Positions 12,682 to 48,920 are shown, counted from the first letter of the stretch. The stretch is 64,000 bases of DNA from Gemmatimonadales bacterium (GCA_036559745.1 DATBSO010000184.1:14023-78022), one strand, 5' to 3'. Notes: generated by a model from the letters alone, not told the origin. A program made the numbers and translations.

Positions 12682-12712
12682 CGCTTAGCGCTGACGTGAC
12701 GGGAGGGTGCTT

Positions 12713-12733: not shown

Positions 12734-12777
12734 GAGCTTGTGAGCGTCTCCCAGTCCCACCCCTCTCGGAGCGCATC

Positions 12778-13779: not shown

Positions 13780-13873
13780 CGGGAAGCAACCCTTTTCCGG
13801 GCATCCGCATCCAATTGCAGTGGGAGCGAAACGCGGCCGCACATCGTCCGTAGGGTAGAAGCTCACATTGCTG

Positions 13874-15106: not shown

Positions 15107-15191
15107 ACCGGTCCCCCTTTCAGCTCCACGCCGGCGTTTCAAACTGATCGCAGGTGCAACTCGCACCGCGCTCGCCGTCATAGTGTGTGAC

Positions 15192-15719
15192 ATGCGAGAC
15201 CAACACCGCCCCAAACAGGAACTGATCTGCGAGGTCACCGCCCTGCGGAAGCAGGTGGCCGACCTCAAGGATGCCATGACGGCGCGCCGCCGCGTCGAGG
15301 ACGCGCTCCGTGCCGGAGAGGTACAGATGCGCGCCCTGGCCGACGGGGCGCCCGTGGGACTCTGCCTGTTCAGCCGGAGCGGCACGCCTATCGCCGCGAA
15401 CCTCCCATTCGCCCGGCTGCTCGGCTACGACTCGCCGGCCGAGCTGCTGCGGGTGGCGGGCTCGCTCGGCGTCTTCGCCAACCGCGACGAGGAGGTACGG
15501 ATCTTTTCGCTGGTGGAGCGGGGGCAGGAGCGGGTGTCGGGCGCCATCTTCCGGCAGAAGGATGGCGTCCGACAGGCTTTCGGCGTCATCGGCGGGACCT
15601 GCGGCGACCCGGATGCCGTGGTACTCGTCATACTCGAGCGCCAGCCCCAGCCCTGGCGCGCACCGCCGCTCGCGGCGCTCAGCCCCGCCTGGTCGGTGCC
15701 CACGCGCTCGGCTTCCTAA
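15192..15719 (+). CDS. Stand-alone PAS-domain protein with N-terminal coiled coil
   Basis: ATG 15192. The segment ..ALADGAPVGLCLFSRSGTPIAANLPFARLLGYDSPAELL...FRQKDGVRQAFGVIG.. resembles a PAS fold. The upstream part of the ORF overlaps the preceding gene. Confidence 0.55.
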   Translation: MRDQHRPKQELICEVTALRKQVADLKDAMTARRRVEDALRAGEVQMRALADGAPVGLCLFSRSGTPIAANLPFARLLGYDSPAELLRVAGSLGVFANRDEEVRIFSLVERGQERVSGAIFRQKDGVRQAFGVIGGTCGDPDAVVLVILERQPQPWRAPPLAALSPAWSVPTRSAS

Positions 15720-15732
15720 AATGTGAAGTCGC

Positions 15733-16254
15733 TCACTGGCCCGAGGTCGCGGGACTCGCTCGCGGCCGTTTGCTCATGTACTCGCGCAGCAAGGCGGCCT
15801 CCTCGCTGACTGTGGTCACCGCGATGGTCGTCTCCCGCAACAGCACGACGCAACCCGCCACCAGCCCGCCTACCGCCACGAATCCGGCACACACGCCGAT
15901 GATCTCGAGCGCGTGGGTGGCGGACACAGGCCCGGCCATGCTCACGGCCCCACCGACGAGCGAGATGAACGCCGAGGCCGCGAACCCGCCGAGCGCCCCA
16001 TAGAAGAAGCGAAGGGAGCGAAGCAGCATGAGCGCCCGTTGCTCGGACAAGCCTACCTCGCGCAGCCGGAACTCGGCGAACGGGTCGTCCTCCGCCCGCG
16101 GGCGCTCCAGGTCCGCGGCCAGGGCGCGTGCACGGTCCACCGCCCGGGCGAGGCGGTTGCTGGTGCTGAGCACGAGAATCGAGGAGGCGTTGGTCAGGAC
16201 CGCTGGCGCGACGATGAGCGTGAGCGCGGCGTAGGGGTTGGTGGGATCCGACAT
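15733..16254 (-). CDS. DUF2721-family membrane protein
   Basis: 173 aa. ..LIVAPAVLTNASSILVLSTSNRLARAVDRARAL.. followed by two further hydrophobic helices matches the DUF2721 pattern. Confidence 0.7.
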   Translation of the reverse strand: MSDPTNPYAALTLIVAPAVLTNASSILVLSTSNRLARAVDRARALAADLERPRAEDDPFAEFRLREVGLSEQRALMLLRSLRFFYGALGGFAASAFISLVGGAVSMAGPVSATHALEIIGVCAGFVAVGGLVAGCVVLLRETTIAVTTVSEEAALLREYMSKRPRASPATSGQ

Positions 16255-16320
16255 TGAGGCTCTCGGTGGAGGACCGCGGAATATATGAAGCCGCGGTCCC
16301 CACCGGCGCGCCTCACCTGC

Positions 16321-20158: not shown

Positions 20159-22363
20159 ATGTCCCGGGTCCTGATCGTCGCCAATCGGCTGCCCATCTCC
20201 GTCAAGGTCACCGAGACGGGCGTGGACGTCGAGCGCAGCCCTGGTGGCCTGGCTACGGGCCTCCAGGGTCCCCACGAACAGTCCGACGGCCTCTGGATCG
20301 GGTGGTCCGGAGCCGCCGAAGAGCTGACCGCCGAGCGGCAGGCCGAGCTCGATGCCAAGCTCGAGCAGATGCGCCTGGTGGCCGTCCCCCTCCCGACCGA
20401 CCTCGTCAACCGCTACTACCAGGGATTCTCCAACGGGGTGCTCTGGCCCCTGTTCCACTATCTGCTCGAGCAGGTGCCGCTGCAGGTGAGCGACTGGGAT
20501 GCCTACGTCGAGGCCAACGAGCGCTTCGCCGACGTCGTCGCCTCACGATACCAGCACGGCGATCTCATCTGGATCCACGATTACCAGCTCCTGCTGCTTC
20601 CGGGTCTTCTGCGCAAGCGGATCCCGGACGCCCGGATCGGGTTCTTCCTTCACATCCCGTTTCCCTCCGAAGAGCTGTTCCGAACGCTGCCGTCGCGGGA
20701 GCGGATACTCGAGGGAATTCTGGGCGCCGATCTCGTCGGCTTCCACACGCCGACCTACCTCCGGCACTTCTCTACGTCGCTGATCGATATCCTCGGTATC
20801 GCGGTCGAGATCGACCGGGTCCCGCTTCCGACCCGCGAAGTACGGCTCGGCGTCTTCCCGATGGGCATCGATGCGGCCTCGTTCGAGTCGCTGGCGGCAG
20901 ATCCCGCGGTCGAGGCGGAGGCCAAGGCGATCCGGGGCGACGGGAGCGTCCGTCTTCTCGTGGGGGTGGACCGGCTGGACTACACCAAGGGCATTCCGCG
21001 GCGCCTCCTGGCCTACGAGCGGATGCTGCACGTCCATCCCGAGCTGCGGGAGCGGGTGCGGCTGCTTCAGGTGGCAGTGCCGTCGAGGACGGGAGTCGGC
21101 GCGTACCAGGACTACCGGACCCGGGTGGACCAGCTGGTGGGGCAGATCAACGGCGCGTTCGGTACGCCGCGATGGATGCCGGTGCACTACATCTTCCGCG
21201 GGCTCGCCGAATCGGATCTGGTCGCGCTCTATCGCGCGGCAGACGTCATGCTGGTGACGCCGCTTCGCGACGGCATGAATCTCGTCGCGAAGGAGTTCAT
21301 CGCGTCGCGCAACGACGGCGACGGTGTGCTGGTGCTCAGCGAGTTCGCCGGCGCGTCGTGGGAGCTGCCGGAAGCGGTTCGGGTGAATCCGTATGACGTC
21401 GAGGGTGCGGCCGAGGTCTTCTATCGCGCGCTCACGATGCCGGCGGATGAGCGGCGGGCGCGCCTCGCACCGCTCCGGGTCCGGGTACGTACCTTCGACG
21501 TCCACCGCTGGGTGGCCTCGTTCCTGGAGCAGCTCGAGGAGTCCACGCCGATCGCGCCGCCACGCGGGCTCCCGGCCGGAACCCAGGCCGCACGGGATGC
21601 GTTGACCAGCAGGCTTGCCGAGACCGACGGACTCCTGCTGCTGCTCGACTACGATGGAACGCTGGTGCCCTTCGCCGCGACGCCGGATCTCGCTCGGCCG
21701 GACCCGGGTCTGGTCACGCTCCTGGGATCGATCGCCGCGCGCCCCGATACCGAGGTCCACGTGGTGAGCGGGCGGGCGCGCGACGCCCTCGACCATTGGC
21801 TCGGACATCTCCCGGTGTGGCTGCACGCCGAGCACGGGTTCTGGTCCCGGGCGCCGGACTCGCGGGAGTGGGTGCCGGCCGCCGAGCCCGGAGGCAGCTG
21901 GCGCGAGCCCGTGCTCGCGATTCTCCGCGACATCACCGCGCGCACCCCTGGCTCGCTCATCGAGACCAAGGCGGCGGCCATCGCGTGGCATTACCGCATG
22001 TCCGATCCGGAAATCGGCGCACGGCGTGCCAACGAGCTGCGCCTGCATCTCAACCAGGTGTTGAGCAACCAGCCGGTGGAGATCATCCCGGGTCACCGCC
22101 TGCTGGAGATTCGCCCGTACGGCATCCACAAGGGACGCATCGTGGCGCAGGTCTCTTCCGAGCGGCTCGCCAACACCGCCATCCTCGCCATTGGGGACGA
22201 CCGGACCGACGAGGATCTCTTCGCGGCGCTGCCTCCCGAGGCGATCACGATCCGCGTGGGTCCCGGCCCCACCCACGCGCGGTTCCGCATGGACGGCATC
22301 AGCGCGGTGCGCGCACTGCTCCAGAGCCTGGTGGATACCGGCGTCGGCGCCGGCCCCCGCTGA
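20159..22363 (+). CDS. otsA: Bifunctional trehalose-6-phosphate synthase / trehalose-6-phosphate phosphatase (OtsA-OtsB fusion)
   Basis: N-terminal GT20 domain (..[12 protein letters not shown].., ..[10 protein letters not shown].., ..[12 protein letters not shown].., ..[11 protein letters not shown]..). C-terminal HAD phosphatase (..[13 protein letters not shown].., ..[12 protein letters not shown]..). Confidence 0.9.
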
Positions 22364-37604: not shown

Positions 37605-38822
37605 ATGCGCGTACTCCTGCTGAACTACGAGTATCCCCCCTACGGTGGCGGCGCCGGTGTCGCCACCGAGGCGCTCGCACGAACGCTGGCCTCCCGCGGG
37701 GTGACGGTGGACGTCGTCACCGCGGGTGATGAAGCGAGTCACGAGTCAGTGCAGTTGTGGGATGGGACGGCCTCGCAGGAAGGACAGCTCAACGTTCACC
37801 GGGTACCCTGTAGCCGCACGTCTGTGCACGAGGCGGGGATGCGGGACGCGGCGAGCTATCTCCTCGCCGCGCTGCCGTTGGTCCGGCGACTCCTCCGCAC
37901 CGAGCGGTACGACGCGGCCCACTTCTTCTTCTCGCTCCCGACCGGAGCGATGATTCCGCTTCTCGATCTTCGCGGCATCCCCGTCATCGTTTCGCTCCGC
38001 GGTTCCGACGTCCCCGGTTACGACTCGCACAACCTCGCGCTCCGGCGAGCTCATCGTCTGCTCAAGCCGCTGACCCGGTGGATCTGGGGACGGGCCGATC
38101 GCGTGGTGCCGGTATGCGAGAGTCTCGGCAGACTCGCGCGCCAGACGATGCCCAAGCTCACCTACACGGTCATCCCGAATGGCGTCGACCTGGACCGGTT
38201 CCATCCGGCTACCGTGCGCCGTCATCGTCGCGCGGACCGCGTGCGCTGTATCGCCGTCGCGCGGCTGGTCGAGCGGAAGGGTCTCGACCATCTGCTCCGG
38301 GCGATCGCGTCGCTCGAGCGAGGGCGCTACGAGCTCGAGATCGTGGGCACGGGACCGGACGAGCACGCATTACGGGAGCTCGTGGCGACACTCGGGCTCG
38401 ACGGCCTGGTGACGTTCAGCGGATCGCTCGATCGCGCCAGCGTGGCCCGCCGTTATCGTGATGCCGACATCTTCGCCCTCGCTTCGGTCGAGGAGGCCTT
38501 CGGCAACGTCTTCGCCGAGGCGCTCGCGTCCGGTCTGCCGATCGTCGGCAGCAACATCGGCGGAATCCCCGCGCTGGTCGAGCACGGCGTCAACGGCCTC
38601 CTGGTTCCTCCACGGGACCCACACGCGCTGGCTGCCGCAATCCGGCAGCTCGGCGAGAACCCCGGACTCCGCGCGAGCATGAGCCGGCGGAACCGTGAGC
38701 ACGCCGAGAACATGCTGTCGTGGGATCGGATCGGGACCCGCTACCTCTCGCTCTACCATGGCATCCGCGTTCCCGCACGCGCCGGCTCTCGGCTGGCCGA
38801 GCTTCCATCGAGCTCCTGGTGA
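37605..38822 (+). CDS. GT4-family (GT-B) glycosyltransferase
   Basis: MRVLLLNYEYPPYGGGAGVA.. N-terminus. C-terminal ..EEAFGNVFAEALASGLPIVGSNIGGIPALVEHGVNGLLV.. (EX7E region). Confidence 0.9.
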   Translation: MRVLLLNYEYPPYGGGAGVATEALARTLASRGVTVDVVTAGDEASHESVQLWDGTASQEGQLNVHRVPCSRTSVHEAGMRDAASYLLAALPLVRRLLRTERYDAAHFFFSLPTGAMIPLLDLRGIPVIVSLRGSDVPGYDSHNLALRRAHRLLKPLTRWIWGRADRVVPVCESLGRLARQTMPKLTYTVIPNGVDLDRFHPATVRRHRRADRVRCIAVARLVERKGLDHLLRAIASLERGRYELEIVGTGPDEHALRELVATLGLDGLVTFSGSLDRASVARRYRDADIFALASVEEAFGNVFAEALASGLPIVGSNIGGIPALVEHGVNGLLVPPRDPHALAAAIRQLGENPGLRASMSRRNREHAENMLSWDRIGTRYLSLYHGIRVPARAGSRLAELPSSSW

Positions 38823-40120
38823 GCTACGCCGTCGGTTTCTGGGTGGCCGCGGATGCCTTCGAGGTGTTCCGGGCCCAGCGGTTGAGTCCCGATGCGCTCG
38901 GGGCGCTCGCCCGGCGAAGGCTCGGCCGTCTGCTCGTGGCGGCTGCCGGCACGGAGTTCTACCGGCGCCGATTGAATGCCGCGGGCGTAGACCCGCGGAG
39001 TCCGATGCTCCGCTCCGACCCCGACGCCATCATGTCCGTGCTCGCCCCCGTGGGGAAAGCGGAGCTGCGTGACGCGGGCTCCACGATCCTTCGGGGCGGA
39101 CGGATTCATCCCTCCTGGCAATCGTCGAGCTCTTCTGGCTCGACCGGCGAGCCATTCCGGGTGTTCTACGAGCCTCGGGCCTGGGCGACGCTCAAGCATC
39201 TCGTGAAGCTGCGCGCACGCATGGCGTGCGGCCTCCAGACCACCGACCGGATCGCGCTTTTCGATGCGATTCCGCCGTCGCGGCGGTGCGGCGTCAGTCG
39301 CGCAAGCCGGGTGGCGCGGATCAGCGTGCTGCAGCCGCCGGACGCGATGGCCGATCAGCTCTCCGCCTTCGCGCCCGATGCGGTCTACGGCCTCCCCTCG
39401 GCGCTGCTCGAAACGGCCTCCGCGCTGCGCCGGCGCGGCGCGAAGGTGGCGATCGAAAGGGTTTTCACCAGCGGCGAGCTGCTCCAGCCCGCTATCCGGG
39501 ATGCACTTGCCGATGCGTTTGGGGCGCGGGTCTTCGATGTCTACGGCAGCTCCGAGACGAAGGAGATCGCCTGGGAATGCTCCAGTGGCGGGATGCACGT
39601 CAACGCCGACGTGGTCCACCTGGAGGTGCTGGACGACGACGGCCGACCGGTGCCCGACGGGGTGGAGGGGAACCTCGTTGCCACCCCGCTCGTGAACCAC
39701 GCGATGCCGCTCCTCCGGTATCGGATAGGTGACCGCGGGAGTCTGCGCCCTCACGCGTGCGCGTGCGGCCACTCCTTTCCACTGCTCGGCGTGGTCACCG
39801 GCCGGGCCGCCGACGTGCTCGTGCTGTCCGATGGGCGCAGGATCTCGCCCTATGCCCTCACCTGCGCGCTCGAGCTGGAGCCCAGTCTCGTCCGCTATCA
39901 GGTGAACCAGCTCGACCCGGCGCGCATTCGCGTCCGCGCCATCGTCGCACCCGTCGCCTCGCTCGAGGCGGTAGCCGGCCGCATTCGCTCCCTGATCCGC
40001 TCCCAGGTAGCACCCCATCTCGAGACCGAGGTGGAGTTCGTGGACCATCTCCCCACCGGACCGCGGGCCAAGTTCCGCGTCGTCCAGCCGCTGGCGTCGC
40101 CGGCGGAATCTCTCGCCTGA
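38819..40120 (+). CDS. CapK/PaaK-like adenylate-forming enzyme (coenzyme F390 synthetase-like) 1
   Basis: GTG 38819 overlaps the GT4 stop (GTGA). ..SSSSGSTGEPFRVFY.. (AMP-binding P-loop-like motif), ..VYGSSETKEIAWEC.., ..LLRYRIGDRG..CACGHSFPLLGVVTGRAAD... Confidence 0.8.
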   Translation: MSYAVGFWVAADAFEVFRAQRLSPDALGALARRRLGRLLVAAAGTEFYRRRLNAAGVDPRSPMLRSDPDAIMSVLAPVGKAELRDAGSTILRGGRIHPSWQSSSSSGSTGEPFRVFYEPRAWATLKHLVKLRARMACGLQTTDRIALFDAIPPSRRCGVSRASRVARISVLQPPDAMADQLSAFAPDAVYGLPSALLETASALRRRGAKVAIERVFTSGELLQPAIRDALADAFGARVFDVYGSSETKEIAWECSSGGMHVNADVVHLEVLDDDGRPVPDGVEGNLVATPLVNHAMPLLRYRIGDRGSLRPHACACGHSFPLLGVVTGRAADVLVLSDGRRISPYALTCALELEPSLVRYQVNQLDPARIRVRAIVAPVASLEAVAGRIRSLIRSQVAPHLETEVEFVDHLPTGPRAKFRVVQPLASPAESLA

Positions 40121-40134
40121 TCCGGGATCTCACG

Positions 40135-41103
40135 ATGATCCAGATACCCTCCGATCGTTCTTCCTTCCGCTCCGAGCCCGGCGGCCGTGGCGGCGCGCGC
40201 GCGCTGCCCCACCCGCTCACGCCGTACGCGGATCTCATCGTGAACTTCTGTCCGACGGGGATGATTCCGACCAAGGCAATGACGCCGCACGTACCGGTGT
40301 CCCCGTCGGAAGTAGTCGATCAGGCGTGCGCGGCGCTGGAGCGCGGCGTGGCGATCGTCCATCTCCACGCCCGGGACGACGACGGCGCGCCGACGTGGCG
40401 GGGCGAGATCTACGAGCAGATGATCCTCGGGATCCGCGCGCAGTTTCCCGAGGCGATCACCTGCGTGAGCTGCAGCGGCCGGAACTTCCCGGAGTTCGAG
40501 CGGCGGAGCGAAGTGCTGGAGCTGACCGGCGCCGCGCGTCCCGACCTGGCGAGCCTCACGCTTACGACCCTCGATTTCCCGACCGGCACCAGCCAGAACG
40601 CGCCCGACATGGTGATCGCGCTGGCCGAAAAGATGATCGCGAAGGGGATCAAGCCCGAGCTCGAGTGCTTCGATTACGGGATGATCAACGCCGCCAACAT
40701 GCTCATCGCCAAGGGAGTCCTGGGCGACGGCCCCCACTACTTCAACCTACTCCTCGGCTCGCGCTACTCGGTGCCGGCCACCGCCCGTCACCTGTCCGGC
40801 ATGATCGCCGATCTTCCCGATGACTCGCTGTGGTCGGCGGCCGGGATCGGTCTCTTTCAACTTCCAATGAACGCGCTCGCCATCGCGATGGGCGGACATA
40901 CCAGGGTCGGCCTCGAGGACAACATCTTCCACGGCTTCGACCGGAGCGAGCTGGCCACCAACCAGGGTCTCGTCGAGCGCGTGGCCGACCTGAGCGAGAC
41001 CTTCGGCCGCCGGCTGGCGTCGCCCGCCAGCGCCCGCGCCATGATGGGCCTCGGACCGTCCGCCGCGGTGCTCCAGCGCGAGCGTGCCGGGCTCGTCCGA
41101 TGA
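40135..41103 (+). CDS. BKACE-family enzyme (3-keto-5-aminohexanoate cleavage enzyme-like, DUF849)
   Basis: ..LIVNFCPTGMIPTK.., metal-ligand contexts ..VAIVHLHARDDDG.. (HxH) and ..GHTRVGLEDNIF.. (E). TIM-barrel-like length of 322 aa. Confidence 0.85.
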   Translation: MIQIPSDRSSFRSEPGGRGGARALPHPLTPYADLIVNFCPTGMIPTKAMTPHVPVSPSEVVDQACAALERGVAIVHLHARDDDGAPTWRGEIYEQMILGIRAQFPEAITCVSCSGRNFPEFERRSEVLELTGAARPDLASLTLTTLDFPTGTSQNAPDMVIALAEKMIAKGIKPELECFDYGMINAANMLIAKGVLGDGPHYFNLLLGSRYSVPATARHLSGMIADLPDDSLWSAAGIGLFQLPMNALAIAMGGHTRVGLEDNIFHGFDRSELATNQGLVERVADLSETFGRRLASPASARAMMGLGPSAAVLQRERAGLVR

Positions 41104-42443
41104 TCACCAAGGGGCCGGACCTCCTCGGAACCGCCAGCGCGGTGCAGCGTCATCCACGCGCCGACCGGGCGCAGCTCCAGGCGTTTCAGGACGCCAAGCT
41201 TCGCCGGCTCCTCTCACACGCCTACGAGAACGTCCCCTACTATCGAAAGCTCTTCGATCGCCATCGCCTGCACCCGCGACACATCCGCGGGGCGGTGGAC
41301 CTCGAGCTCATCCCGATCACCAGCAAGCAGGAGCTGCGCGACCTTCCGGCCACGGACCTCGTCGCCCGAGGAGTCTCTCCGGTGGCCCTGCTGTCGGTGC
41401 GGACAAACGGATCGACCGGCGAGCCGTTCATCATCCGTCGCACCCGTCTCGAGCAGGGATTTCACACGCTCTTCCGCCAGCGCGCCTACGAGTCGTTCGG
41501 CCTCGGGCTCCGCGGCCGAATCGCCGCCGTGGGCCTGCCGCGCCCAGCCGATCCGAAGGAGAGCAGGGTCGTGGGCCGCTGGCTGAGCGCGATGGGCGTG
41601 CACCCCACGCTCCGGGTGGACGGGTTGCAGGACCCCGAGGACATCGTGGATCAGCTCGAGGCCTTCCGCCCCGATCTCATCACGGCGCTCCCCGGCATGC
41701 TGCTGCGCGTCGCCGATTTCCTCCTGGATCACCGTCCCGAGCGACTGCGCCCGCGGATCGTGGTGGTGGGCGGTGAGGTCCTGACCCCGCTCGTCCGCCG
41801 CCGGCTGACCGAGGCATTCGGCGTGGCGCCGCTGGAGACGTACGCCTGCCACGAGTTTCAGCTGCTCGGCTGGGAGTGTCGGACCCACGGCGGCATCCAC
41901 ACATGCGATGACGGCGTCGCCATCGAGGTGCTGCGCGACGGCCAGGCGGTGCAACCCGGCGAGGAGGGGGAGGTCGTCGCCACCAATCTCCACGCCTACG
42001 CCATGCCCCTCATCCGGTATCGCCTTGCCGATCTCGTCACTCGCGGCGCCGACCGATGCGCGTGTGGGCAGCCGTTCTCGGTCATCGGCGCCATCCGCGG
42101 GCGGATGGTGGATTATTTCCCGCTTCCGAACGGCCGCACGATTCACCCGTACCAGATCCTCCAGTGCCTGCAGCCCGGCTCCGACGGGTGGATCCGCCAG
42201 TATCAGCTCCTGCATGACCGGCCCGAGCGCATCGTCCTTCGGGTGGTGCCGTCCGATTCAATCACCCCCGAACTGGAAAGCCGGATCACCGGGGCCGTGA
42301 TGCCGCTCCTCGGCCCTGGCGTCGAGTTCCAGGTGCGGATCGTGGACGACCTCCCGCTCGATGCCGGCGGCAAGTTCCGCCACGCGCGCTCGCTGATGGC
42401 CTCCACGTACGAGCGCCTCGTCCCCCCGGCCGCGAATGGTTAG
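41100..42443 (+). CDS. CapK/PaaK-like adenylate-forming enzyme 2 (paralog of 38819..40120)
   Basis: ATGA overlap at 41100-41103. ..YENVPYYRKLFDRH.., ..TNGSTGEPFIIRR.., ..LIRYRLADLV..CACGQPFSVIGAIRGRMVD.., colinear with the first copy. Confidence 0.85.
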   Translation: MITKGPDLLGTASAVQRHPRADRAQLQAFQDAKLRRLLSHAYENVPYYRKLFDRHRLHPRHIRGAVDLELIPITSKQELRDLPATDLVARGVSPVALLSVRTNGSTGEPFIIRRTRLEQGFHTLFRQRAYESFGLGLRGRIAAVGLPRPADPKESRVVGRWLSAMGVHPTLRVDGLQDPEDIVDQLEAFRPDLITALPGMLLRVADFLLDHRPERLRPRIVVVGGEVLTPLVRRRLTEAFGVAPLETYACHEFQLLGWECRTHGGIHTCDDGVAIEVLRDGQAVQPGEEGEVVATNLHAYAMPLIRYRLADLVTRGADRCACGQPFSVIGAIRGRMVDYFPLPNGRTIHPYQILQCLQPGSDGWIRQYQLLHDRPERIVLRVVPSDSITPELESRITGAVMPLLGPGVEFQVRIVDDLPLDAGGKFRHARSLMASTYERLVPPAANG

Positions 42444-43791
42444 GCTCGCCGAGCCATACGAGCAGGACCCCGCGCCCAGACTCTTCGTGCACGGTGCGGC
42501 GAGTCCGGCCAGAGGCGCGCGCGGAACGCCGCGTGCCGTCGAGCGCGCCTCCGAGCGGGCGCTGGTCCTCGCGCGGGCGCAGGACATCGTCTGCGTGAGC
42601 GAAGAGGTGGAGCCGGCCTATCTCGCCTACCTGGCCGAGCTCGGCCTGGGACCGGCGCCCGATCGCGTCGTGGCCGCGTCGCGATTCGGCGATCACGAGC
42701 CGGGGCGCGCGCTCTGGGCCCGGCTCGCGGGAAGCACCGAGGCTCTTCGGGCGATCGGCACACTGCTCCGCGACGCCGGCCCGTCGCGGCTGCATCCGTT
42801 CATCGCCTCGCGCGGCTCCTTCGCGCTCGCGGCGGCCCTCGAGGTCGCGTCCGAGACCGAGGTAAGCGTGGTAGGGGGTGACCCGGAGATCGTCGAGCGC
42901 GCCGATCACAAACACCATATCCGGGAACGCGCCATCCGGCTGGCGATCCCCGTGGCCGATGGGGAGGTCGTGCAGCTCGCGGTTGCAGGTGGGCGCCGCC
43001 GCCGTGACTTCGACGCGCTCCGCGCCGCGGTGGAGCGCTGGCTTCGGCCCACCGGCCGCGTGCTCGTCCGCGGTACCCAGGGCGCCGGCAACTCGGCCAG
43101 CTACGTCGTTGGCACGGGCGGTACCGATCCTGACGGGCTGATCCGCGCACTCGCCGATCACCCGGAGACCCGGACCTACCTGGTCGAGGCGATGGTGGCC
43201 GCCACCCTGTCACCCAACGTGCAGCTCCACGTGGCACCCGGCGACGGCCCGATCACCTGCGTCGGCGTCACCGACCAGCGCTGGGAGCGTCCGCTGGTTC
43301 ACGGGGGGAACCTGTATCCCTCGATGGCACGTCTTGCCGGAGAGATGGTGGACTGGGCAACTCGCCTGGCGTCATCGCTCCAGCGGGAGGGGTACGCCGG
43401 TCTCCTCAGTCTCGACTTCGTCGAGTACGCCGATCCCGCCACCAACGCGCCTCGCGCCATCCTCGTCGAGGCGAGCCCTCGGGTGACGACGGATACCTAT
43501 CCGCTCGCGCTCTTCGCGCGGCTCAACGACGCCCAGCGCGTGGCCGGCCGTCCCGAGAGCGCCGCGTTCGTCTCCGGGACCATCGACACCCGGCCACGGC
43601 GCTTCGCCGACTTCCATCGCGCCGCACACCATCTCCTCTATTCGCCGACCACCGGGACCGGTGCGGTCCCGGTCCACATCGGCGCGCTGAGCCGGGGCAA
43701 GTGCGGAGTGGTCGTCCTCGGTCCGAGCCGCGACGCCGTCCTGCGCGCATCCGGGGAGCTCCAGAGCTGGTGTCGGAGGGAAGGACGGTGA
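42436..43791 (+). CDS. ATP-grasp-type ligase (pre-ATP-grasp + PGM1-like C-terminal domain)
   Basis: 8-nt overlap with the upstream gene. ..ADHKHHIRERAIRLAIPVADG.., ..VLVRGTQGAGNSASYVV.., ..YLVEAMV.., ..YAGLLSLDFVEY...ILVEASPRVTTDTYPL.. resemble the ATP-grasp nucleotide/Mg sites. Family assignment made by eye. Confidence 0.6.
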   Translation: MVRLAEPYEQDPAPRLFVHGAASPARGARGTPRAVERASERALVLARAQDIVCVSEEVEPAYLAYLAELGLGPAPDRVVAASRFGDHEPGRALWARLAGSTEALRAIGTLLRDAGPSRLHPFIASRGSFALAAALEVASETEVSVVGGDPEIVERADHKHHIRERAIRLAIPVADGEVVQLAVAGGRRRRDFDALRAAVERWLRPTGRVLVRGTQGAGNSASYVVGTGGTDPDGLIRALADHPETRTYLVEAMVAATLSPNVQLHVAPGDGPITCVGVTDQRWERPLVHGGNLYPSMARLAGEMVDWATRLASSLQREGYAGLLSLDFVEYADPATNAPRAILVEASPRVTTDTYPLALFARLNDAQRVAGRPESAAFVSGTIDTRPRRFADFHRAAHHLLYSPTTGTGAVPVHIGALSRGKCGVVVLGPSRDAVLRASGELQSWCRREGR

Positions 43792-44774
43792 CGCTGCTCG
43801 CCTCCGTCGAAGAGCGGTTCCTCGTCCCCGCATACGCGTCCCGGCTCGCCGAGGCGTGGATCGCGACCCATGGCGCCCTCGCTTTGCCGTTCCAGCTGCG
43901 CGGCGAGGTGCGCCGGTCCGTGGTCGCGACCGAGGGCGGCTCACTTCGCGTGCTGGAGATCGGCCGGAAGAAACATCTGACGCCATTCCGTCAGAAGCTT
44001 CTCGGTCCCGTCACGCAGGAGCACGACGACGGAACGCTGACGCTCACAAGCCCCGCCGCGCTCGACGCCGTGAGTGCGGATCTCACACTGGTGGAGATCC
44101 ATCGCTGGATGGCGCCCCGGTTTCGCCGGGCCGGATGGATCGTCGTCCCGGCCGATGTACGGTGGCAGGGCGATCTCTCGAATCTTCCACCCCGCCGGCC
44201 GACCGTCAGCCTCAAGTCGGACCTCGCGAAGGTCCGGCGACACGACTACACCCTGGAGCACGCGACCGACTCAGGTGACTGGGACGAGTTCTACCACGGG
44301 ATGGTGGTGCCGCAGGCCCGCGCCCGCTTCGGCGACGACGTCTGGATCCCGAGCGAGCGGCTCCAGCGCGTGCTGTCGGTGAGGGGAAGGCTGCACTTCA
44401 TCCGCCGTGGAGGCGTTCGTGTGGCGGGGGTGTGCTCGGTCCGCGACGGCGCGTCGCTCTGGCTGCCGTTGATGGGGCTGCGCCAGGGCGATCAATCGCT
44501 CTTGCGCGAAGGCGTGTATTCGGCGGCCTTTTCGCTCGTGTTCGCCTGGGCTCGCGAGATGGGCTGCCAGCGAGTGGACATGGGCCGGACGTCGCCCTTC
44601 GTTCACGACGGCATCCAGCGCTTCAAGCGGAAGTGGGGACTGCAGCCGGCGGCTGATCCGCTCAGCCATCTGATTGCCGTACGCGCTGGCCAGTCGGTCC
44701 GGCCGATGTTCGAGCGGCAGCCCGTGTTGATCGAGACGGCGCGCGGCATAGCGACCTACCCGGAGGCCGCATGA
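43788..44774 (+). CDS. GNAT-fold acyl/aminoacyl-transferase (Acetyltransf_6 / FemAB-like)
   Basis: GTGA overlap at 43788-43791. ..KSDLAKVRRHDYTLEH.., ..LHFIRRGGVRVAGVCSV.., ..GCQRVDMGRTSPFVHDGIQRFKRKWG.. are typical of the BioF2-like/FemAB-like acetyltransferase domain. Confidence 0.6.
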   Translation: MTLLASVEERFLVPAYASRLAEAWIATHGALALPFQLRGEVRRSVVATEGGSLRVLEIGRKKHLTPFRQKLLGPVTQEHDDGTLTLTSPAALDAVSADLTLVEIHRWMAPRFRRAGWIVVPADVRWQGDLSNLPPRRPTVSLKSDLAKVRRHDYTLEHATDSGDWDEFYHGMVVPQARARFGDDVWIPSERLQRVLSVRGRLHFIRRGGVRVAGVCSVRDGASLWLPLMGLRQGDQSLLREGVYSAAFSLVFAWAREMGCQRVDMGRTSPFVHDGIQRFKRKWGLQPAADPLSHLIAVRAGQSVRPMFERQPVLIETARGIATYPEAA

Positions 44775-45454
44775 GCCTGCCGGGCCGTCTCACGAGGCTC
44801 GTGGGCCATTGGCGCGATCTCCCGGCGGAGACAGCCCGCGCGTGGCGGGTGGGTGGACTGCGTGAGGTCCGTCAGCTCTTCGCCGACCGGTCGGTGCATC
44901 TCGTCTTCCGCCGTGACCGGATGGTCGTGATCGCGCAGCGGCTCGATGGCGTGCGCGAAGTGCCGGCTCCGGCGGGCGTGACGATCTCGATCGCGACGGC
45001 GGCCGACGTCGATCGTCTTGCCGGAATGGTCGGGGCCCGCGACCTCGATCTGTTCCGGGCCCGGCATGCGGCGGGTCGTACCTGCCTCCTCGCCTGGCGC
45101 GACGGACGGCCGATCGGCTACACGTGGCTCTCCGAGCACGTCGGGCCCGACGTGACGATCTGCCCGCTCCCGCTCCCGTCCCACGCGGCCTACCTCTACG
45201 ACCTCTACGTCGTGCCCGCGGAGCGCAGCTCCGGCGTCGGCTCGGCGCTCGTGAGCGCCCGGCTTCGTCTCGCGCGCGAGCGCGGCTTCATCGAGGGCTG
45301 GCGGATGATCTCGGTGGGGAACCGTGCGTCGTTCCGGACGGTGGACAAGACCGGTGGGACGGGTACTCGCGTAGTCGGGGAGATGCGGTACTACAAGGTT
45401 CTCGACCGCATCTATCCCCGGTTCACGCCGGCTCCCGATGCGGCCCGGCCATGA
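44771..45454 (+). CDS. GNAT-family N-acetyltransferase
   Basis: ATGA overlap at 44771-44774. ..LLAWRDGRPIGYTWL.., ..YLYDLYVVPAERSSGVGSALVSARLRLARERG.. (acetyl-CoA-binding Q/RxxGxG/A-like motif). Confidence 0.7.
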   Translation: MSLPGRLTRLVGHWRDLPAETARAWRVGGLREVRQLFADRSVHLVFRRDRMVVIAQRLDGVREVPAPAGVTISIATAADVDRLAGMVGARDLDLFRARHAAGRTCLLAWRDGRPIGYTWLSEHVGPDVTICPLPLPSHAAYLYDLYVVPAERSSGVGSALVSARLRLARERGFIEGWRMISVGNRASFRTVDKTGGTGTRVVGEMRYYKVLDRIYPRFTPAPDAARP

Positions 45455-46629
45455 GCGCCGTGCCCTCTCTGGCGGCCCCTCCTGAAAACACCCGATTCGC
45501 CGTCGCGATCGAAGGCAGGGCCGCGAGCGTGCGTCCCGATGAATGGAACGCACTCGCCCGGCGAGGCTTCTCGCTCCACCGTTGGCACGCCGCGGCTGAA
45601 GCGAGCGGCTGGCGCGCGCGCCACGTCGTGGTCCGCGAGCGCGGCGCGATTCGCGCGATCGTCCCCGCGTACCTCCTCGATGGCGGGGCCGCGCTCGACA
45701 TCCACGACCGCTGGCTCGGCCCTCTCGGTCCGGCGATGGCCGCAATGGGCCTCCGTCTCAGGCCCACCATCTCCGTCGGCGCGCCCGGATCCACCACGAG
45801 CGATTGGCTTGGCGATCTCGACGGCCTGCCCGATGTGATCCTCGCGCAGGTGCTTGCCGCACTCGAGGACCAGGCTCGGCTCGATGGGGCGCGGGCGGTG
45901 GTGTGGCCGTTTGTGGATCAGGACAGGACGCGCCTCCGCGAAATGGCCCGACAGGCGGGGTACCTCGACGTCTATGCCGGCTCGAGCGCGAGGCTCGGCA
46001 TCGAATGGCCTTCCTTCGACGAATACGTCTCGAGTCGCTCGAAGAGCCTTCGCCGGACGATTCGGGGTGAGCTCCGCTCTCTCGCCGATCAGGGGATCCG
46101 CACGGCGATCACCGACGACTTCCGCGTCCACGCCGGTGCGATGGCGTCCGTGTATCGTGGCAGCAACGGACGTCACCGTGGACGGACTCCCGCCGTGCCG
46201 GATGCCCTCTTCGAGCAGCTTGCGAGGGTGCCGACTCCGGGACTCTGGGGACAGCTCGCATTCGTCGGCGACCATCTCGTCGCATCGAGCGTCTCCGTCG
46301 TCGCGGGCGGCATCATGGAGGGGACCCTCGCCGCGTTCACGCCGGAGTTTCTCGGCGGACCGGTCTATCACAACGACCTGGTGTACGAGCCGCTGCGTCT
46401 CGCCTGTTCGCATGGCGTGGGCGCGCTCGACCTTGGACCCACGGCGCTATACCCCAAGGTGCTGCGCGGTGCACGGCTGCGCCGGCGCCGGACGCTCGCG
46501 CTGGGCGTGTCAGGTCCGGTGCACGCGGCCCTCAGGACGCTCGGTCCGCTGGTCGCACGCCGGACGGAGTGGAAAGAGCGTCGGGCACTCGCCCCGCTCG
46601 GCGCGCTCGAATCGCTGATCATCGCATGA
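45451..46629 (+). CDS. FemAB-like / DUF482-type GNAT-fold protein
   Basis: ATGA overlap at 45451-45454. ..RPDEWNALARRGFSLHRWHAAAEASGW.., ..FDEYVSSRSKSLRRTIRGELR.., ..LDLGPTALYPKVLRGARL.. resemble the peptidoglycan-biosynthesis/recognition FemAB_like family. Confidence 0.6.
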   Translation: MSAVPSLAAPPENTRFAVAIEGRAASVRPDEWNALARRGFSLHRWHAAAEASGWRARHVVVRERGAIRAIVPAYLLDGGAALDIHDRWLGPLGPAMAAMGLRLRPTISVGAPGSTTSDWLGDLDGLPDVILAQVLAALEDQARLDGARAVVWPFVDQDRTRLREMARQAGYLDVYAGSSARLGIEWPSFDEYVSSRSKSLRRTIRGELRSLADQGIRTAITDDFRVHAGAMASVYRGSNGRHRGRTPAVPDALFEQLARVPTPGLWGQLAFVGDHLVASSVSVVAGGIMEGTLAAFTPEFLGGPVYHNDLVYEPLRLACSHGVGALDLGPTALYPKVLRGARLRRRRTLALGVSGPVHAALRTLGPLVARRTEWKERRALAPLGALESLIIA

Positions 46630-48068
46630 CCAGCGTTCGCCTGCCGATCTCGACCGCGCGCCGGCCGAGCCTCCTACATCGGATCGCAGCCTACTCGGCG
46701 AGCCGCGGTGTCACGGAGGGACTCCTCGGGCTTCGCGGCATCGCGCTCGCCACCGTGCTTGGCCCTGCCGGCTTCGGTGCCTGGGCGCTGCTCCGGCTCT
46801 CGATGCGCTACGGCACCTTCGCCGCGCTCGGCGTCTTTCGTGGCATGGAGCTGGAGATGTTGAGCGTCCGCCGAGGCGACCGGGGCACCGCGGACTACGC
46901 GGCGAGCGCGGCACTCGGCTTCATTCTGGCGGAAACAGGGACGCTCGCGGCCATTGCTGTCGTCGCTTCGTTCCTGGTGAGGGACCCGGCCCACGCGCTC
47001 GTCCTTCGAGGATTCGCCGCCGCGGTGATCTTCGAGCAGACCTACATCTATGCGATGGTGTGGACCCGGGTACGAACGACGCTCCGGCGCTACGCCATTC
47101 TCGAGATGGCCAATGCTGCCCTTCAGCTCGTGTGCGGAGCATCGCTCGCCTGGGTCTGGGGGCTTCCGGGCGCCTTTGCCGGGATGGCGCTGGCGAGCGC
47201 GCTCGCGATCGCGTTGTCCGCCGGCTGGGTGGTCTTCCGTCCCGCGATCCGGCCCGTGCCGCTGCGACGTCTGCTCGGCGTCGGCATTCCGATCACGGCT
47301 TCGATGCTGCTCGCCACCGCGCTCTACACCGCCGACCGATGGGTCGTCGCCGCGCTGGGCGGCGCGACCCTGCTCGGCTACTACGCGTTCGCCGCCGCGG
47401 TCGCCGATGTGACCGGATCGTTCGCCTGGGTGGTGCGAACCGTCGTGTTCGCCGACGTGTACGGGCTGGCCCAGTCGTCCGGGGCGGCGGCTGCGCTCAC
47501 CCGTCACTTCGATCGTGCCGTGATCCCGTTCGCACGGCTCTACCCACCGCTCCTCGGTGCGCTCGCCTGCGTGCTCGGACCCGTCGTGACCCTCGTCGTG
47601 CCCCAGTATCTCCCCGCGGTGGCGCCGGCGAGACTCTTTCTCCTGTGCGGCGCGGCCGGCGGCATCGTGAGCCTCGCGGCGGTCGGCGCGGTCGCGGCGG
47701 GGAAGCATCGGAGCCTGCCCATCCTCTCGGCCGGCGCGCTGGTCGTGAGCCTCTCGCTCTCGGTCGGCGCGATCCGATCAGGCTTGGGGCTCGAGGCAGT
47801 GGCCGCTGCGGCCCTCACCGGCCAGGCGATCTATGCGGCCGGGGTTCTGTGGCTCACCTGCCGGGAGAGCGGGCGCACGGATACGGTCGCATTTCTCCGG
47901 CGCGCGCTTCTTCCCCTCGTCTGGTGTACGGCGGCGGTGGTCACGGTCGGGCGGCTCTTTCCCGGAAACGATTTCGCGTCCGCCGGCCTCGCGCTCCTCG
48001 CCTATCTCCTTCTGATGGTTCCCCTCGTGCCGTCCATCCGCCGCGAGTGGCGGGGAGTGCGGAGGTAA
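46626..48068 (+). CDS. MOP-superfamily (Wzx/polysaccharide-biosynthesis-protein-like) flippase/exporter
   Basis: ATGA overlap at 46626-46629. 480 aa, at least 12 hydrophobic helices. N-terminus ..LRGIALATVLGPAGFGAWALL.. is typical of Polysacc_synt proteins. Confidence 0.75.
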   Translation: MTSVRLPISTARRPSLLHRIAAYSASRGVTEGLLGLRGIALATVLGPAGFGAWALLRLSMRYGTFAALGVFRGMELEMLSVRRGDRGTADYAASAALGFILAETGTLAAIAVVASFLVRDPAHALVLRGFAAAVIFEQTYIYAMVWTRVRTTLRRYAILEMANAALQLVCGASLAWVWGLPGAFAGMALASALAIALSAGWVVFRPAIRPVPLRRLLGVGIPITASMLLATALYTADRWVVAALGGATLLGYYAFAAAVADVTGSFAWVVRTVVFADVYGLAQSSGAAAALTRHFDRAVIPFARLYPPLLGALACVLGPVVTLVVPQYLPAVAPARLFLLCGAAGGIVSLAAVGAVAAGKHRSLPILSAGALVVSLSLSVGAIRSGLGLEAVAAAALTGQAIYAAGVLWLTCRESGRTDTVAFLRRALLPLVWCTAAVVTVGRLFPGNDFASAGLALLAYLLLMVPLVPSIRREWRGVRR

Positions 48069-48071: not shown

Positions 48072-48920
48072 ATGGCCGCTCCGCGCGAGCGACTCTCCGT
48101 CGTGGTGCTCACGTCGATCCCGCTCGGGATCGAGGTGGCGGCGGCGCTCAAGGCGTTGCCGGAGGTCGGGCGCATCGTGCTCCTCACGGCCCCGGCCGCG
48201 CCGTCGCGATCCATGCTTGATCAGCTGAAGGTCACCTGGCGGTACGAGGGAATACCGGGTCTTCTCCGAGCCGTGTTGCGGCGCGCGCGAAAGGCGGCAC
48301 GGCTCGAAGAGGGGAACAAGGTCGCCGCCCAGGCGGCTCGCCGTTGCCCCAGCGTCGCCCACTTCGCGATGCCTCGCTTTCACTCGGAGACCTGCCGCGC
48401 CTTCATCGACGCGATGGCCCCGGACCTCGGCGTGGTCGTCGGCACCCACATCCTGCGTGGAGACCTCTACCGCATCCCGCGTCTCGGCTGCATCAACCTC
48501 CACCTGGGCGCGGCGCCCGAATTCCGCGGCTCCTCCCCCGGCTTCTACGAGCTGCTGGAGGGCGTTGGGGAGGCGGGCGTCACGATTCACCGGGTGACCG
48601 ATACCCTCGACGGCGGCAACATTCTTCTCCAGGAGCGGTTCCCGCTCGACATCGCCCCCAAGGGCGATCCCCTCGAGTATCTCTCGCGTTATGTCGCCGA
48701 CGTGCTCTGCCCCAACGGCGTGCGGATGATGACCGCCGCGGTGGCGGCACTGGCCCGAGGCGCCTGCGCGGAGCGAATTCAGGACGTCTCCCGGGCCCGC
48801 CCGCACCGGCGTGCGACCTGGGCGCTCAAGAAGGCGCTTCGGCGTCGGGTGGCCGGGAGAAGGGCGGCGCGGAGGGGAACCGTTCACGGGAGGTTGACAT
48901 CCCCCGCGACCGAGCCGTAA
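48072..48920 (+). CDS. Formyltransferase (Fmt/ArnA N-domain-like)
   Basis: Starts 3 nt after the exporter stop. ..GCINLHLGAAPEFRGSSPGFYEL.. (catalytic N/H region) and ..TIHRVTDTLDGGNIL.. (catalytic Asp region). Arg-rich tail. Confidence 0.8.
   Translation: MAAPRERLSVVVLTSIPLGIEVAAALKALPEVGRIVLLTAPAAPSRSMLDQLKVTWRYEGIPGLLRAVLRRARKAARLEEGNKVAAQAARRCPSVAHFAMPRFHSETCRAFIDAMAPDLGVVVGTHILRGDLYRIPRLGCINLHLGAAPEFRGSSPGFYELLEGVGEAGVTIHRVTDTLDGGNILLQERFPLDIAPKGDPLEYLSRYVADVLCPNGVRMMTAAVAALARGACAERIQDVSRARPHRRATWALKKALRRRVAGRRAARRGTVHGRLTSPATEP

Follow-up and report, generated by a model that had tools for sequence, protein, structure and literature searches.

The BKACE (DUF849) family includes Kce from Cloacimonas acidaminovorans (PDB 2Y7D-G, BKACE group G2), which serves lysine fermentation. 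Tyr145 of this enzyme has been proposed to contact the CoA sulfur, and the residue equivalent to its Glu143, E171 of PdKce, was shown by mutagenesis to be the catalytic base (PMC11961710). BsfD, a BKACE homologue from Burkholderia (PDB 9ZSC), acts in the biosynthesis of flavophos (2,4-dioxopentylphosphonate). Two glycan systems are also close to the case described here. In the VPS locus of V. cholerae, the PaaK/CapK-like protein VpsH adds glycine to lipid-linked GulNAcA (PMC13463779). In Flavobacterium psychrophilum, wfpC-G (ACP, two KS, KR and a PglD homologue) lead to 3,5-dihydroxyhexanoyl-Qui2NAc4N (PMC6519341).

We analysed a stretch of 64,000 nucleotides from a Gemmatimonadales bacterium (the window), in which a BKACE gene is flanked by two adenylase genes. 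An earlier note, made from the sequence alone, had reported a BKACE between two adenylases at 38819-42443. The three ORFs (Ad1, BKACE and Ad2) lie there on the plus strand, and every peptide quoted in the note was found in the translations. Its interpretation was upheld with respect to an intact BKACE, a biosynthetic operon and adenylases that do not belong to the paa pathway. It was not upheld with respect to adenylases activating the BKACE product, and the sandwich arrangement proved to be lineage-specific.

Operon structure and the chromosomal island

The three genes are part of a translationally coupled operon of ten genes on the + strand, and stop and start codons overlap at seven of the nine junctions. 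The operon begins with a GT4 glycosyltransferase (37605..38822; Pfam Glycos_transf_1 E 1.6e-36, Glyco_transf_4 E 4e-24), which scores below every NCBIfam equivalog cut-off. It is found in 35 Gemmatimonadales loci and adjoins BKACE in the Ignavibacteriales locus L040. A TTG further upstream, at 37542, is an alternative start. A GTGA overlap connects GT4 to Ad1 (38819..40120, 433 aa), a PaaK/CapK-like adenylate-forming enzyme and the conserved adenylase of the island. BKACE (40135..41103, 322 aa), a Zn-dependent TIM-barrel protein which we assign to an acyltransferase-coupled subfamily, is followed with an ATGA overlap by Ad2 (41100..42443, 447 aa), a PaaK/CapK-like adenylate-forming paralogue whose copy number differs between species. 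Ad2 in turn overlaps by 8 nt with an ATP-grasp ligase with a pre-ATP-grasp (PGM1-type) N-domain (42436..43791; Pfam PreAtp-grasp E 1.1e-10), which was found in 23 related loci and gave no match in a PDB sequence search.

Three GNAT-fold transferases come next. For the Acetyltransf_6 (FemX/BioF2-like) transferase (43788..44774; E 1.9e-4), found in 28 related loci, the score of 22.0 bits is at the Pfam cut-off; its start was revised to GTG 43788, which gives a GTGA overlap. The second is a GNAT acyl-CoA N-acyltransferase (44771..45454; Pfam Acetyltransf_1 E 1.7e-10), a candidate user of the BKACE product. It sits four genes downstream of BKACE, whose direct neighbours in the window are the adenylases, and it is present in 22 of the 24 island loci reaching beyond its position. 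It is weakly similar to the GNAT that follows BKACE in L040, L042 and L050 (profile probability 96.6%). The third is a FemAB_like / Acetyltransf_6 transferase (45451..46629; Pfam FemAB_like E 2.2e-9, Acetyltransf_6 E 2.3e-7), and two FemAB_like genes are also present in the Ignavibacteriales island. A Wzx-like MOP-family flippase or exporter (46626..48068; Pfam Polysacc_synt_3 E 1e-4) has an ATGA overlap with the gene upstream; its 22.1 bits are just below the cut-off of 23, and its L040 counterpart reaches 47 bits. The last gene codes for a formyltransferase-like protein of the Fmt/ArnA N-domain type (48072..48920; Pfam Formyl_trans_N E 7.6e-16). Its NCBIfam matches to fmt (E 5.9e-17) and ArnA (E 5.5e-11) are both far under the cut-off, and the gene is optional across species, with only 12 related loci having it.

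No Wzy, initiating phosphoglycosyltransferase or nucleotide-sugar genes were found in the operon or among the other window genes scanned, and no sugar aminotransferase gene was found in the operon. Of the components of a Wzx/Wzy-dependent O-antigen or capsule locus, only the Wzx-like protein and one GT4 are present. The operon looks like a tailoring island and not like a complete polysaccharide locus.

About 40 Gemmatimonadales species have BKACE at the same chromosomal position, in a hypervariable island flanked by DUF5916 and rhodanese genes. BKACE is the best-conserved island gene in 32 of 33 loci, with a median identity to its orthologues of 79% versus 49-64% for the other island genes. 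As the gene arrangement has been kept in about 35 Gemmatimonadales species, the juxtaposition is not due to chance. Ad1 is adjacent to BKACE in most of the Gemmatimonadales islands and in Ignavibacteriales L040. Ad2-type genes occur in 0-4 copies (none in L031 and L033, four in L030). Eight species have the ATP-grasp gene between Ad1 and BKACE, and one species (L023) has GT4-BKACE-Fmt with neither an adenylase nor a GNAT. Thus, the adenylase-BKACE-adenylase sandwich is specific to the lineage.

Conserved residues of BKACE and the adenylases

BKACE matches Pfam PF05853 (E 8e-79) with 265.2 bits (cut-off 24.8), its residues 34-306 corresponding to positions 2-274 of the 274-position model. The closest solved structure is 3NO5 (E 1.6e-48), and Kce (2Y7D) aligns over its full length (E 5e-44). 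The HxH and Glu contexts to which the earlier note had drawn attention are retained. In a proper alignment HxH (Kce His46/His48) and the ED pair (Glu230/Asp231) align exactly, the Zn ligands being His76, His78 and Glu261, and these ligands are invariant in 63 of the 63 clade members. Catalytic residues Glu143, Arg226, Asp231 and Ser82 of Kce are kept as Glu177, Arg257, Asp262 and Ser112. This supports a catalytically intact enzyme. Tyr145 is replaced by Phe179, as in the whole clade, which is compatible with family membership because 3NO5, 3CHV and BsfD have Phe at this position as well. Glu14, which according to the Kce structure paper reportedly binds the amino group of the substrate, is replaced by Ile44.

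A maximum-likelihood tree was computed from 63 relatives (46-90% identity) with three characterised or solved BKACEs (Kce, 3NO5 and 3CHV) as outgroups. The 63 locus BKACEs all group together in a single clade (support 100/98), apart from the outgroups. The clade carries the signature Ser84, Thr108 and Asn170 (Kce numbering), where Kce itself has Gly, Asn and Gln, and a conserved loop of its own after strand beta-3 (SGRNFPEFE[R/K]R).

The two adenylases are colinear paralogs, as had been proposed, and can be aligned end to end with 33% identity (E 3e-50). Pfam AMP-binding (cut-off 29.9) is matched by Ad1 with 32.3 bits and by Ad2, below the cut-off, with 22.5 bits. The top NCBIfam match of Ad1 is the DVU_1553-family ligase (117.6 bits versus a cut-off of 300). 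In the PDB, Ad1 matches the PaaK-like ligase 6SIW (E 1.8e-20) and Ad2 matches PaaK 4R1L (E 6.5e-24). With their P-loop motifs (SSGSTGEPF in Ad1, TNGSTGEPF in Ad2) and C-terminal lysine motifs (AKF and GKF, respectively), both have the sequence features of the PaaK-like branch of the adenylate-forming (ANL) superfamily. Neither is PaaK of the paa pathway: scores against TIGR02155 are 67.9 and 102.2 bits versus a cut-off of 646.3, and no paa genes were found among the window genes scanned.

Relatives in other phyla and gene fusions

Outside the Gemmatimonadales island, 40 loci from at least 8 phyla were compared. Two Ignavibacteriales share the gene set GT4, Ad1-type, Ad2-type, BKACE, GNAT, FemAB_like and Wzx, in two different gene orders. 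In L040 the Ad2-type paralogue matches Ad2 with E 2e-56, and in L038 BKACE is far from the adenylases. In Bacteroidota and others, BKACE adjoins an acyltransferase of the NeuD/PglD type or a GNAT, often together with glycosyltransferases; in Gillisia (L068) the locus is of the complete O-antigen type and includes NeuB, GT4, DegT and Wzx. No adenylase was found near BKACE in the loci of the same clade from Bacteroidota, Acidobacteriota, Planctomycetota and Pseudomonadota.

An acyltransferase, either a NeuD/PglD-type LbH enzyme or a GNAT, lies directly beside BKACE in 23 of the 40 loci and at most two genes away in 35. LbH transferases of the NeuD/PglB/VioB family occur in 30 of the 40, and GT2 genes in half of them (20 of 40). 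Of the 29 tree loci with an LbH transferase, most come from Bacteroidota, and a single ancestral arrangement may underlie them, so that the counts overstate independence. Among the best 150 cluster representatives, natural fusions were seen in the form of eight GNAT-BKACE, two BKACE-GNAT and one BKACE-DegT protein, and no BKACE-adenylase fusion was seen. The fused BKACEs carry the clade signature. The idea that BKACE makes a building block for the flanking adenylases was not borne out by these data, which point to acyl-CoA-dependent acyltransferases, with ten GNAT fusions, as its constant partner.

Proposed role and comparison with known systems

We propose, with confidence and doubt about evenly balanced, that BKACE represents a distinct, uncharacterised branch of the family that partners acyl-CoA-dependent acyltransferases in glycoconjugate biosynthesis. 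Judged from its sequence and context, it most likely uses a beta-keto acid and acetyl-CoA to form an unusual acyl-CoA, with which a glycoconjugate would be N-acylated. The beta-keto acid, small and uncharged, would attack acetyl-CoA as a Zn-bound enolate, and CoA would cleave the adduct to acetoacetate and the non-standard acyl-CoA, with no use of ATP. The acyl group would then be handed to one of the GNAT-fold transferases (43788-46629), which would transfer it to an amine on a sugar, or on a chain attached to a sugar, with GT4 installing that sugar. Ad1, Ad2 and the ATP-grasp protein, whose number varies between species, may be ATP-dependent amide ligases that add amino acids or similar units; for Ad1 and Ad2 a role like that of VpsH is probable by analogy. 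The Fmt-like protein may cap an amine, and the Wzx-like protein would flip the lipid-linked product outward.

The coincidental presence in the operon of an enzyme with a catabolic or housekeeping role (such as Kce, or an enzyme for 3-oxoadipate or carnitine) would agree with the mostly catabolic BKACE roles in the literature and with automatic annotations, which name orthologues 3-keto-5-aminohexanoate cleavage enzyme or 3-oxoadipate:acetyl-CoA acetyltransferase. However, the protein misses both equivalog cut-offs (NF052387 for Kce, 236.7 bits versus 382; NF053568 for the 3-oxoadipate enzyme, 195.8 versus 350), has Ile in place of Kce Glu14 and falls into a separate clade. It is neither of these two enzymes, and does not group with a known catabolic subfamily. 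Genes for lysine fermentation, carnitine or aromatic degradation were not found among the window genes scanned. BKACE is translationally coupled to its neighbours, and synteny and fusions with glycan enzymes extend across several phyla. The operon with its Wzx-like gene is biosynthetic and exporter-containing, as the earlier note had it, and we regard a catabolic or housekeeping role as very improbable and close to refuted.

It is also unlikely, though less so, that the sandwich reflects a three-step substrate relay. Ad1 would make an acyl-CoA, BKACE would condense or remodel a beta-keto or beta-amino acyl unit (acyl-CoA plus acetoacetate to beta-keto acid plus acetyl-CoA, or other remodelling) and Ad2 would activate it for amide formation. 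PaaK-family enzymes are typically CoA ligases, the BKACE reaction is treated in published work as a Claisen-type condensation possible in either direction, and both the frequent Ad1-BKACE adjacency, which includes L040, and the ATGA overlap with Ad2 would fit. Yet BKACE occurs with no nearby adenylase in four other phyla and in L023, is distant from the adenylases in L038 and is split from Ad1 by the ATP-grasp gene in eight species; Ad2 is missing from L031 and L033 and fourfold in L030, and the fusion partners are GNAT and DegT. Rather improbable, too, is a non-canonical chemistry like that of BsfD, yielding an unusual ketone-bearing unit and not an acyl-CoA, either by C-acetylation of a beta-keto acid and decarboxylation to a 1,3-diketone or by decarboxylation alone. 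Phe at the Tyr145 position is shared with BsfD, the distinctive clade loop is the same post-beta-3 loop in which BsfD differs, and BKACE groups G6 and G7 are without canonical activity according to the literature. But this Phe is also present in 3NO5 and 3CHV, the closest solved structures, and the BsfD-type insertion is missing. The canonical reaction is a named activity nearby, because the second-best NCBIfam match is the 3-oxoadipate:acetyl-CoA acetyltransferase equivalog. An acyl-CoA product is also the simplest account of the fusion and adjacency with acyltransferases that consume CoA thioesters.

For a BKACE that supplies acyltransferases, the known systems offer partial parallels. Kce belongs to the same Pfam family and has the Zn ligands and the four catalytic residues in common with it, but serves lysine fermentation, whereas the context here is glycan biosynthesis. 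With 3NO5 and 3CHV the protein shares Phe145, Arg86 and Lys17; it differs from them in its pocket (P10, M13, C80, S84, N87, F88, T108, N170), and it lacks the aromatic-degradation context of the 3-oxoadipate:acetyl-CoA acetyltransferase equivalog. BsfD (sequence match E 1e-33) is a precedent for a BKACE that serves biosynthesis and not catabolism. It belongs, however, to a phosphonate small-molecule cluster, takes the reaction no further than C-acetylation and contains about 20 inserted residues, Arg91 among them. The window BKACE has no such insertion, and its coupling is to acyltransferases and glycosyltransferases.

The best functional analogue of Ad1 and Ad2 is VpsH, a PaaK/CapK-like protein that is encoded in a Wzx-type glycan operon and that genetic evidence connects with amide-linked amino-acid decoration (PMC13463779); the likeness is one of family type and operon context. 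VPS has a single such enzyme and lacks the BKACE, FemAB-like and ATP-grasp partners that are present here. In O-antigen loci such as that of F. psychrophilum, genes for making an unusual acyl donor are encoded together with an N-acyltransferase of the NeuD/PglD family (wfpC-G; PMC6519341), and in Bacteroidota the relatives of the BKACE described here occupy the position of this acyl-donor module. The wfpC-G module uses ACP, KS and KR chemistry, while here one enzyme, BKACE, would be enough to form the acyl-CoA out of a beta-keto acid and acetyl-CoA.

The BKACE gene and its operon

The three ORFs at 38819-42443 on which the earlier note was based, and the peptides that it quoted, are all present in the translations. 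They code for a PaaK/CapK-like adenylase (Ad1, 38819-40120, 433 aa), a BKACE (DUF849) protein (40135-41103, 322 aa) and a second adenylase (Ad2, 41100-42443, 447 aa), and they represent genes 2-4 of a ten-gene operon which lies entirely on the + strand. The operon starts with a GT4 glycosyltransferase gene (37605-38822). Downstream of Ad2 are genes for an ATP-grasp protein with a pre-ATP-grasp domain (42436-43791), an Acetyltransf_6 protein (43788-44774), a GNAT (44771-45454), a FemAB_like protein (45451-46629), a Wzx-like flippase (46626-48068) and, as the final gene, an Fmt-like formyltransferase (48072-48920). Stop and start codons overlap at seven of the nine junctions (GTGA, ATGA or 8 nt), and gaps of 14 and 3 nt are found at the other two. 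GTG 43788, in a GTGA overlap with the stop codon of the ATP-grasp gene, is the most likely start of the Acetyltransf_6 gene; the first in-frame GTG (43701) is improbable because the two genes would then overlap by 91 nt. When the ATP-grasp and FemAB-like proteins were compared to the PDB by sequence search, no matches were obtained.

The window has a G+C content of about 68%. The other window genes that were scanned have housekeeping functions without relation to the operon (RND efflux, an OtsA-OtsB fusion, peptidases, a permease), and none of them takes part in lysine fermentation or in the breakdown of carnitine or phenylacetate. The OtsA-OtsB gene (20159-22363) is a trehalose-6-phosphate synthase/phosphatase fusion (GT20 and Trehalose_PPase) and is unrelated to the operon.

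Ad1 and Ad2 are indeed colinear paralogues, with 33% sequence identity across their whole length (E 3e-50). Both match solved PaaK or PaaK-like ligases (E 1e-20 to 1e-24), and the top NCBIfam model for both is the DVU_1553-family AMP-dependent ligase, with scores far under the cut-off. They score 68 and 102 bits with the PaaK model TIGR02155, for which the cut-off is 646, and thus are not bona fide PaaK, an assignment that would have placed them in the paa pathway. A full-text search for CapK or PaaK in connection with uronic acid amides found no literature.

A separate BKACE clade with an apparently uncharged pocket

The 322-aa protein covers the Pfam BKACE model from end to end (E 8e-79) and is similar to the solved structures 3NO5 (E 1.6e-48) and 2Y7D (E 5e-44), the latter being the 3-keto-5-aminohexanoate cleavage enzyme Kce. 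In an alignment that included Kce, 3NO5, 3CHV and 62 relatives, the zinc ligands His46, His48 and Glu230 (Kce numbering) are invariant, so the metal ligands named in the earlier note persist in a proper alignment, and the same holds for Ser82, Glu143, Arg226 and Asp231. The equivalent of Glu143 in the Paracoccus enzyme, E171, has been identified as the catalytic base by mutagenesis (PMC11961710).

Other pocket positions are uncharged in the window enzyme (Met13, Ile14, Thr16, Ser84, Thr108, Thr110, Asn170). The position of Kce Glu14 is occupied by Ile or Val in the window protein and its relatives, and Tyr145 is replaced by Phe, which is also found in 3NO5, 3CHV and BsfD, the BKACE homologue of flavophos biosynthesis. 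Arg86 is shared with 3NO5 and 3CHV. The apparently uncharged pocket argues against an amino substrate that is held in the way Kce holds its own; judged from these residues, an acyl group that is small and neutral or polar would fit.

The window protein stays below the NCBIfam equivalog cut-offs both for Kce (236.7 versus 382) and for 3-oxoadipate:acetyl-CoA acetyltransferase (195.8 versus 350). In a maximum likelihood tree with only three outgroups (Kce, 3NO5, 3CHV), the 63 BKACEs from the window and related loci form one clade which is separate from these solved references (support 100/98), and those from the Gemmatimonadales island are monophyletic within the tree (support 100/99). The clade is marked by the signature NFCPTGM(I/V)PTK, Cys80, S-x-SGRNFPEFE(R/K)R, SLTL(S/T)SL(D/N)F and Asn170. 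By this tree and these models, the enzyme does not fall into a known catabolic subfamily. The 120 best protein homologues are exclusively Gemmatimonadales orthologues, without distant named relatives among them.

Variable islands and a constant acyltransferase partner

Orthologues of the window BKACE (72-90% identity) occur in about 40 Gemmatimonadales species, in a genomic island that is always flanked by a DUF5916 gene and a rhodanese gene and is highly variable in between. Gene content of the related loci was derived from crude ORF calling, and the island carriers, including those from Ignavibacteriales, are all MAGs. Only GT4, Ad1 and BKACE are nearly constant. Ad2-type adenylases number from zero (L031, L033) to four (L030) per island and GNATs from one to three, while the PGM1-like ATP-grasp, the Fmt-like protein and Wzx are optional. 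A second, COG3919-like ATP-grasp is inserted between Ad1 and BKACE in eight species, and seven or eight species have a MurF-like Mur ligase without the N-terminal domain. The BKACE is the best-conserved island gene in 32 of 33 loci, with a median identity of 79% as compared to 49-64% for the other island genes, a level comparable to that of the housekeeping rhodanese flank (81%).

The extremes of this variation are seen in two loci. L030 has four successive Ad2-type paralogues after the BKACE (10955-16288), giving five adenylases in total, which looks like an expansion of the amide-ligase set. L023 has a minimal island, GT4-BKACE-Fmt-like (4746-7957), devoid of adenylase, GNAT and flippase; even so, its BKACE shares 76% identity with that of the window. 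In addition, some Gemmatimonadales have a second BKACE paralogue (54% identity) at another genome position (L039, L043). In L039 (9387-10852), this copy is directly downstream of a GNAT that resembles those fused to BKACE elsewhere (BLASTP E 1e-22 to the library protein P0133).

Two MAGs from Ignavibacteriales (L038, L040) hold the same gene set. The order in L040 is GT4, an Ad1-type adenylase, BKACE, GNAT, two FemAB_like genes, two Ad2-type paralogues and Wzx; L038 arranges these families differently. That the gene set is kept despite the shuffled order argues for functional coupling. In both genomes, a gene for a bacterial alpha-2-macroglobulin (about 2,030 aa; L038, 3580-9663; L040, 960-7058) directly precedes the island.

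Further loci, with BKACEs that are 46-54% identical, were found in Bacteroidota, Acidobacteriota, Planctomycetota, Pseudomonadota, Fidelibacterota and Thermodesulfobacteriota. Outside the Gemmatimonadales and Ignavibacteriales islands, the recurrent neighbour is an acyl-CoA-dependent acyltransferase. It adjoins the BKACE in 23 of 40 loci and is at most two genes away in 35 of 40, counts which are phylogenetically non-independent. In 30 loci there is a NeuD/PglB/VioB-family LbH sugar N-acyltransferase (TIGR03570, E 1.5e-35), with PglB-ATD, VioB, PerB and PglD as PDB relatives, and in four loci the neighbour is a GNAT (L039, L042, L050, L057). We considered whether the island GNAT belongs to a specific BKACE-associated subfamily, but BLAST and hhalign returned only a generic, non-discriminating GNAT-level similarity. 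In 20 loci, the BKACE-acyltransferase pair occurs with GT2 glycosyltransferases, and ATP-grasp ligases are also often present. The pair of Gillisia (L068) is part of a complete O-antigen-type locus with NeuB, GT4, GT2, a DegT aminotransferase and Wzx. A Pseudomonadota MAG (L057) carries a nucleotidyltransferase-class I/II aminotransferase fusion (11462-13294) downstream of its BKACE-GNAT pair, an architecture reminiscent of the cytidylyltransferase-transaminase fusions that serve to decorate cell surfaces with phosphonates.

The partnership extends to gene fusions. Among 1.84 billion cluster representatives searched exhaustively with HMMER, 4,521 relatives reached E 1e-3 or better, and fusions were counted among the best 150 of these. 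There are eight GNAT-BKACE and two BKACE-GNAT fusions, two fusions of BKACE to a class I/II aminotransferase, one to DegT and one to an aldo/keto reductase. A domain that consumes CoA thioesters is thus fused in both orders, which is the strongest evidence that an acyl-CoA product is passed to a transferase. The GNAT- and DegT-fused BKACEs have Ser84, Arg86, Thr108, Phe145 and Asn170 in common with the window clade, while Kce, 3NO5 and 3CHV have Gly84 and Gln170. The gene contexts of the fusions again show amide ligases or acyltransferases, e.g. a YheCD-type ATP-grasp, an Asn-synthase-like protein with PGA_cap, or an LbH transferase.

Some individual fusions deserve mention. In P0146 (632 aa; L084, 1408-3306), the fusion partner of the BKACE is a DegT sugar aminotransferase, and the divergent neighbouring gene codes for an LbH acyltransferase; P0165 (817 aa) is the aldo/keto reductase fusion. 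In P0211 (742 aa) and P0248 (753 aa), a BKACE with 34-36% identity to that of the window is joined to a class I/II aminotransferase fold (Aminotran_1_2). These two form a sister branch which has Gly84 but also Thr108 and Asn170. The domain fused to their BKACE could function as an aminotransferase or, with the acyl-CoA product as its substrate, as an alpha-oxoamine synthase. In L081 (101-2946), a GNAT-BKACE fusion gene is immediately downstream of a thiolase gene on a contig of only 3 kb, which hints at recycling of the by-product acetoacetate or acetoacetyl-CoA.

The earlier note had proposed that the BKACE supplies the two flanking adenylases. The comparative data point elsewhere, as the sandwich arrangement is lineage-specific while the universal partner is an acyltransferase. 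An anabolic rather than catabolic role, which had also been suggested, is well supported.

Proposed function and known systems

In BKACE chemistry, a beta-keto acid, bound to zinc as its enolate, attacks acetyl-CoA, and the adduct is cleaved by CoA into an acyl-CoA and acetoacetate. By this reaction, the window enzyme would provide a non-standard acyl-CoA without the use of ATP. A GNAT-fold transferase of the operon would then place the acyl group on an amine of a sugar or of a sugar-linked chain, and a short variable amide-linked chain on the sugar would be exported by the Wzx-like protein. Such a chain fits the enzyme classes that occur across the island variants: ligases of the PaaK-like, ATP-grasp and Mur types, Fem-like transferases, and enzymes for capping with formyl or acyl groups. 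In this scheme, the acceptor of the GT4, the carrier lipid and the sequence of steps are all inferred.

A comprehensive reading, which we offer with considerable doubt, is that this undescribed branch (Ser84, Thr108, Asn170, Phe145) is an ATP-independent acyl-CoA supplier for N-acylation of surface glycans. The rare acyl-CoA that it might form from a common, small beta-keto acid would go straight to a GNAT or PglD-type transferase, either fused to the enzyme or encoded next to it. For Gemmatimonadales and Ignavibacteriales, this reading takes the acyl group as the invariable root of a variable peptide that is linked to a sugar. Ribosomes would not be involved: the peptide would be assembled by stand-alone ligases of the PaaK-like, ATP-grasp, Mur and Fem types, and its length would depend on their number. 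Candidate conversions under this doubtful reading are malonate semialdehyde to formyl-CoA, oxaloacetate to oxalyl-CoA, and a hydroxy-keto acid to hydroxyacyl-CoA. We also considered 3,5-dihydroxyhexanoyl, as in the O-antigen of Flavobacterium psychrophilum, and rejected it since ACP, KS and KR genes, rather than a BKACE, are considered responsible for that route.

A BKACE branch from many phyla, very abundant in soil Gemmatimonadales, appears tied to glycan N-acyltransferases by adjacency and natural fusion. If true, this would be a novel, inexpensive way to obtain the unusual acyl-CoA donors with which cell surfaces are decorated, and one which requires neither ATP nor ACP or ketosynthase. 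It would also provide a genetic marker for unknown N-acyl groups of O-antigens and capsules, and new biocatalysts for rare CoA esters. The Gemmatimonadales island, with its four amide-ligase classes and Fem-like transferases, is a candidate system through which a major, uncultured soil lineage could assemble sugar-peptides independently of ribosomes. Some carriers of the clade BKACE are in culture (among them Algoriphagus, Gillisia, Marinifilum and Indibacter), so that the core hypothesis can be tested directly.

Full-text literature searches found no paper on a BKACE in a polysaccharide or glycoconjugate locus. What seems to be new, on the basis of sequence comparison, is an acyltransferase-coupled, glycan-associated BKACE subfamily within an uncharacterised hypervariable tailoring island. 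Known BKACE roles are almost exclusively catabolic, BsfD being the sole biosynthetic case that we found. For the adenylases, the best functional analogue is VpsH of V. cholerae, a PaaK/CapK-like protein which, as genetic evidence shows (PMC13463779), adds glycine to the GulNAcA of the VPS disaccharide while this is lipid-linked; by this analogy, Ad1 and Ad2 may have a comparable role.
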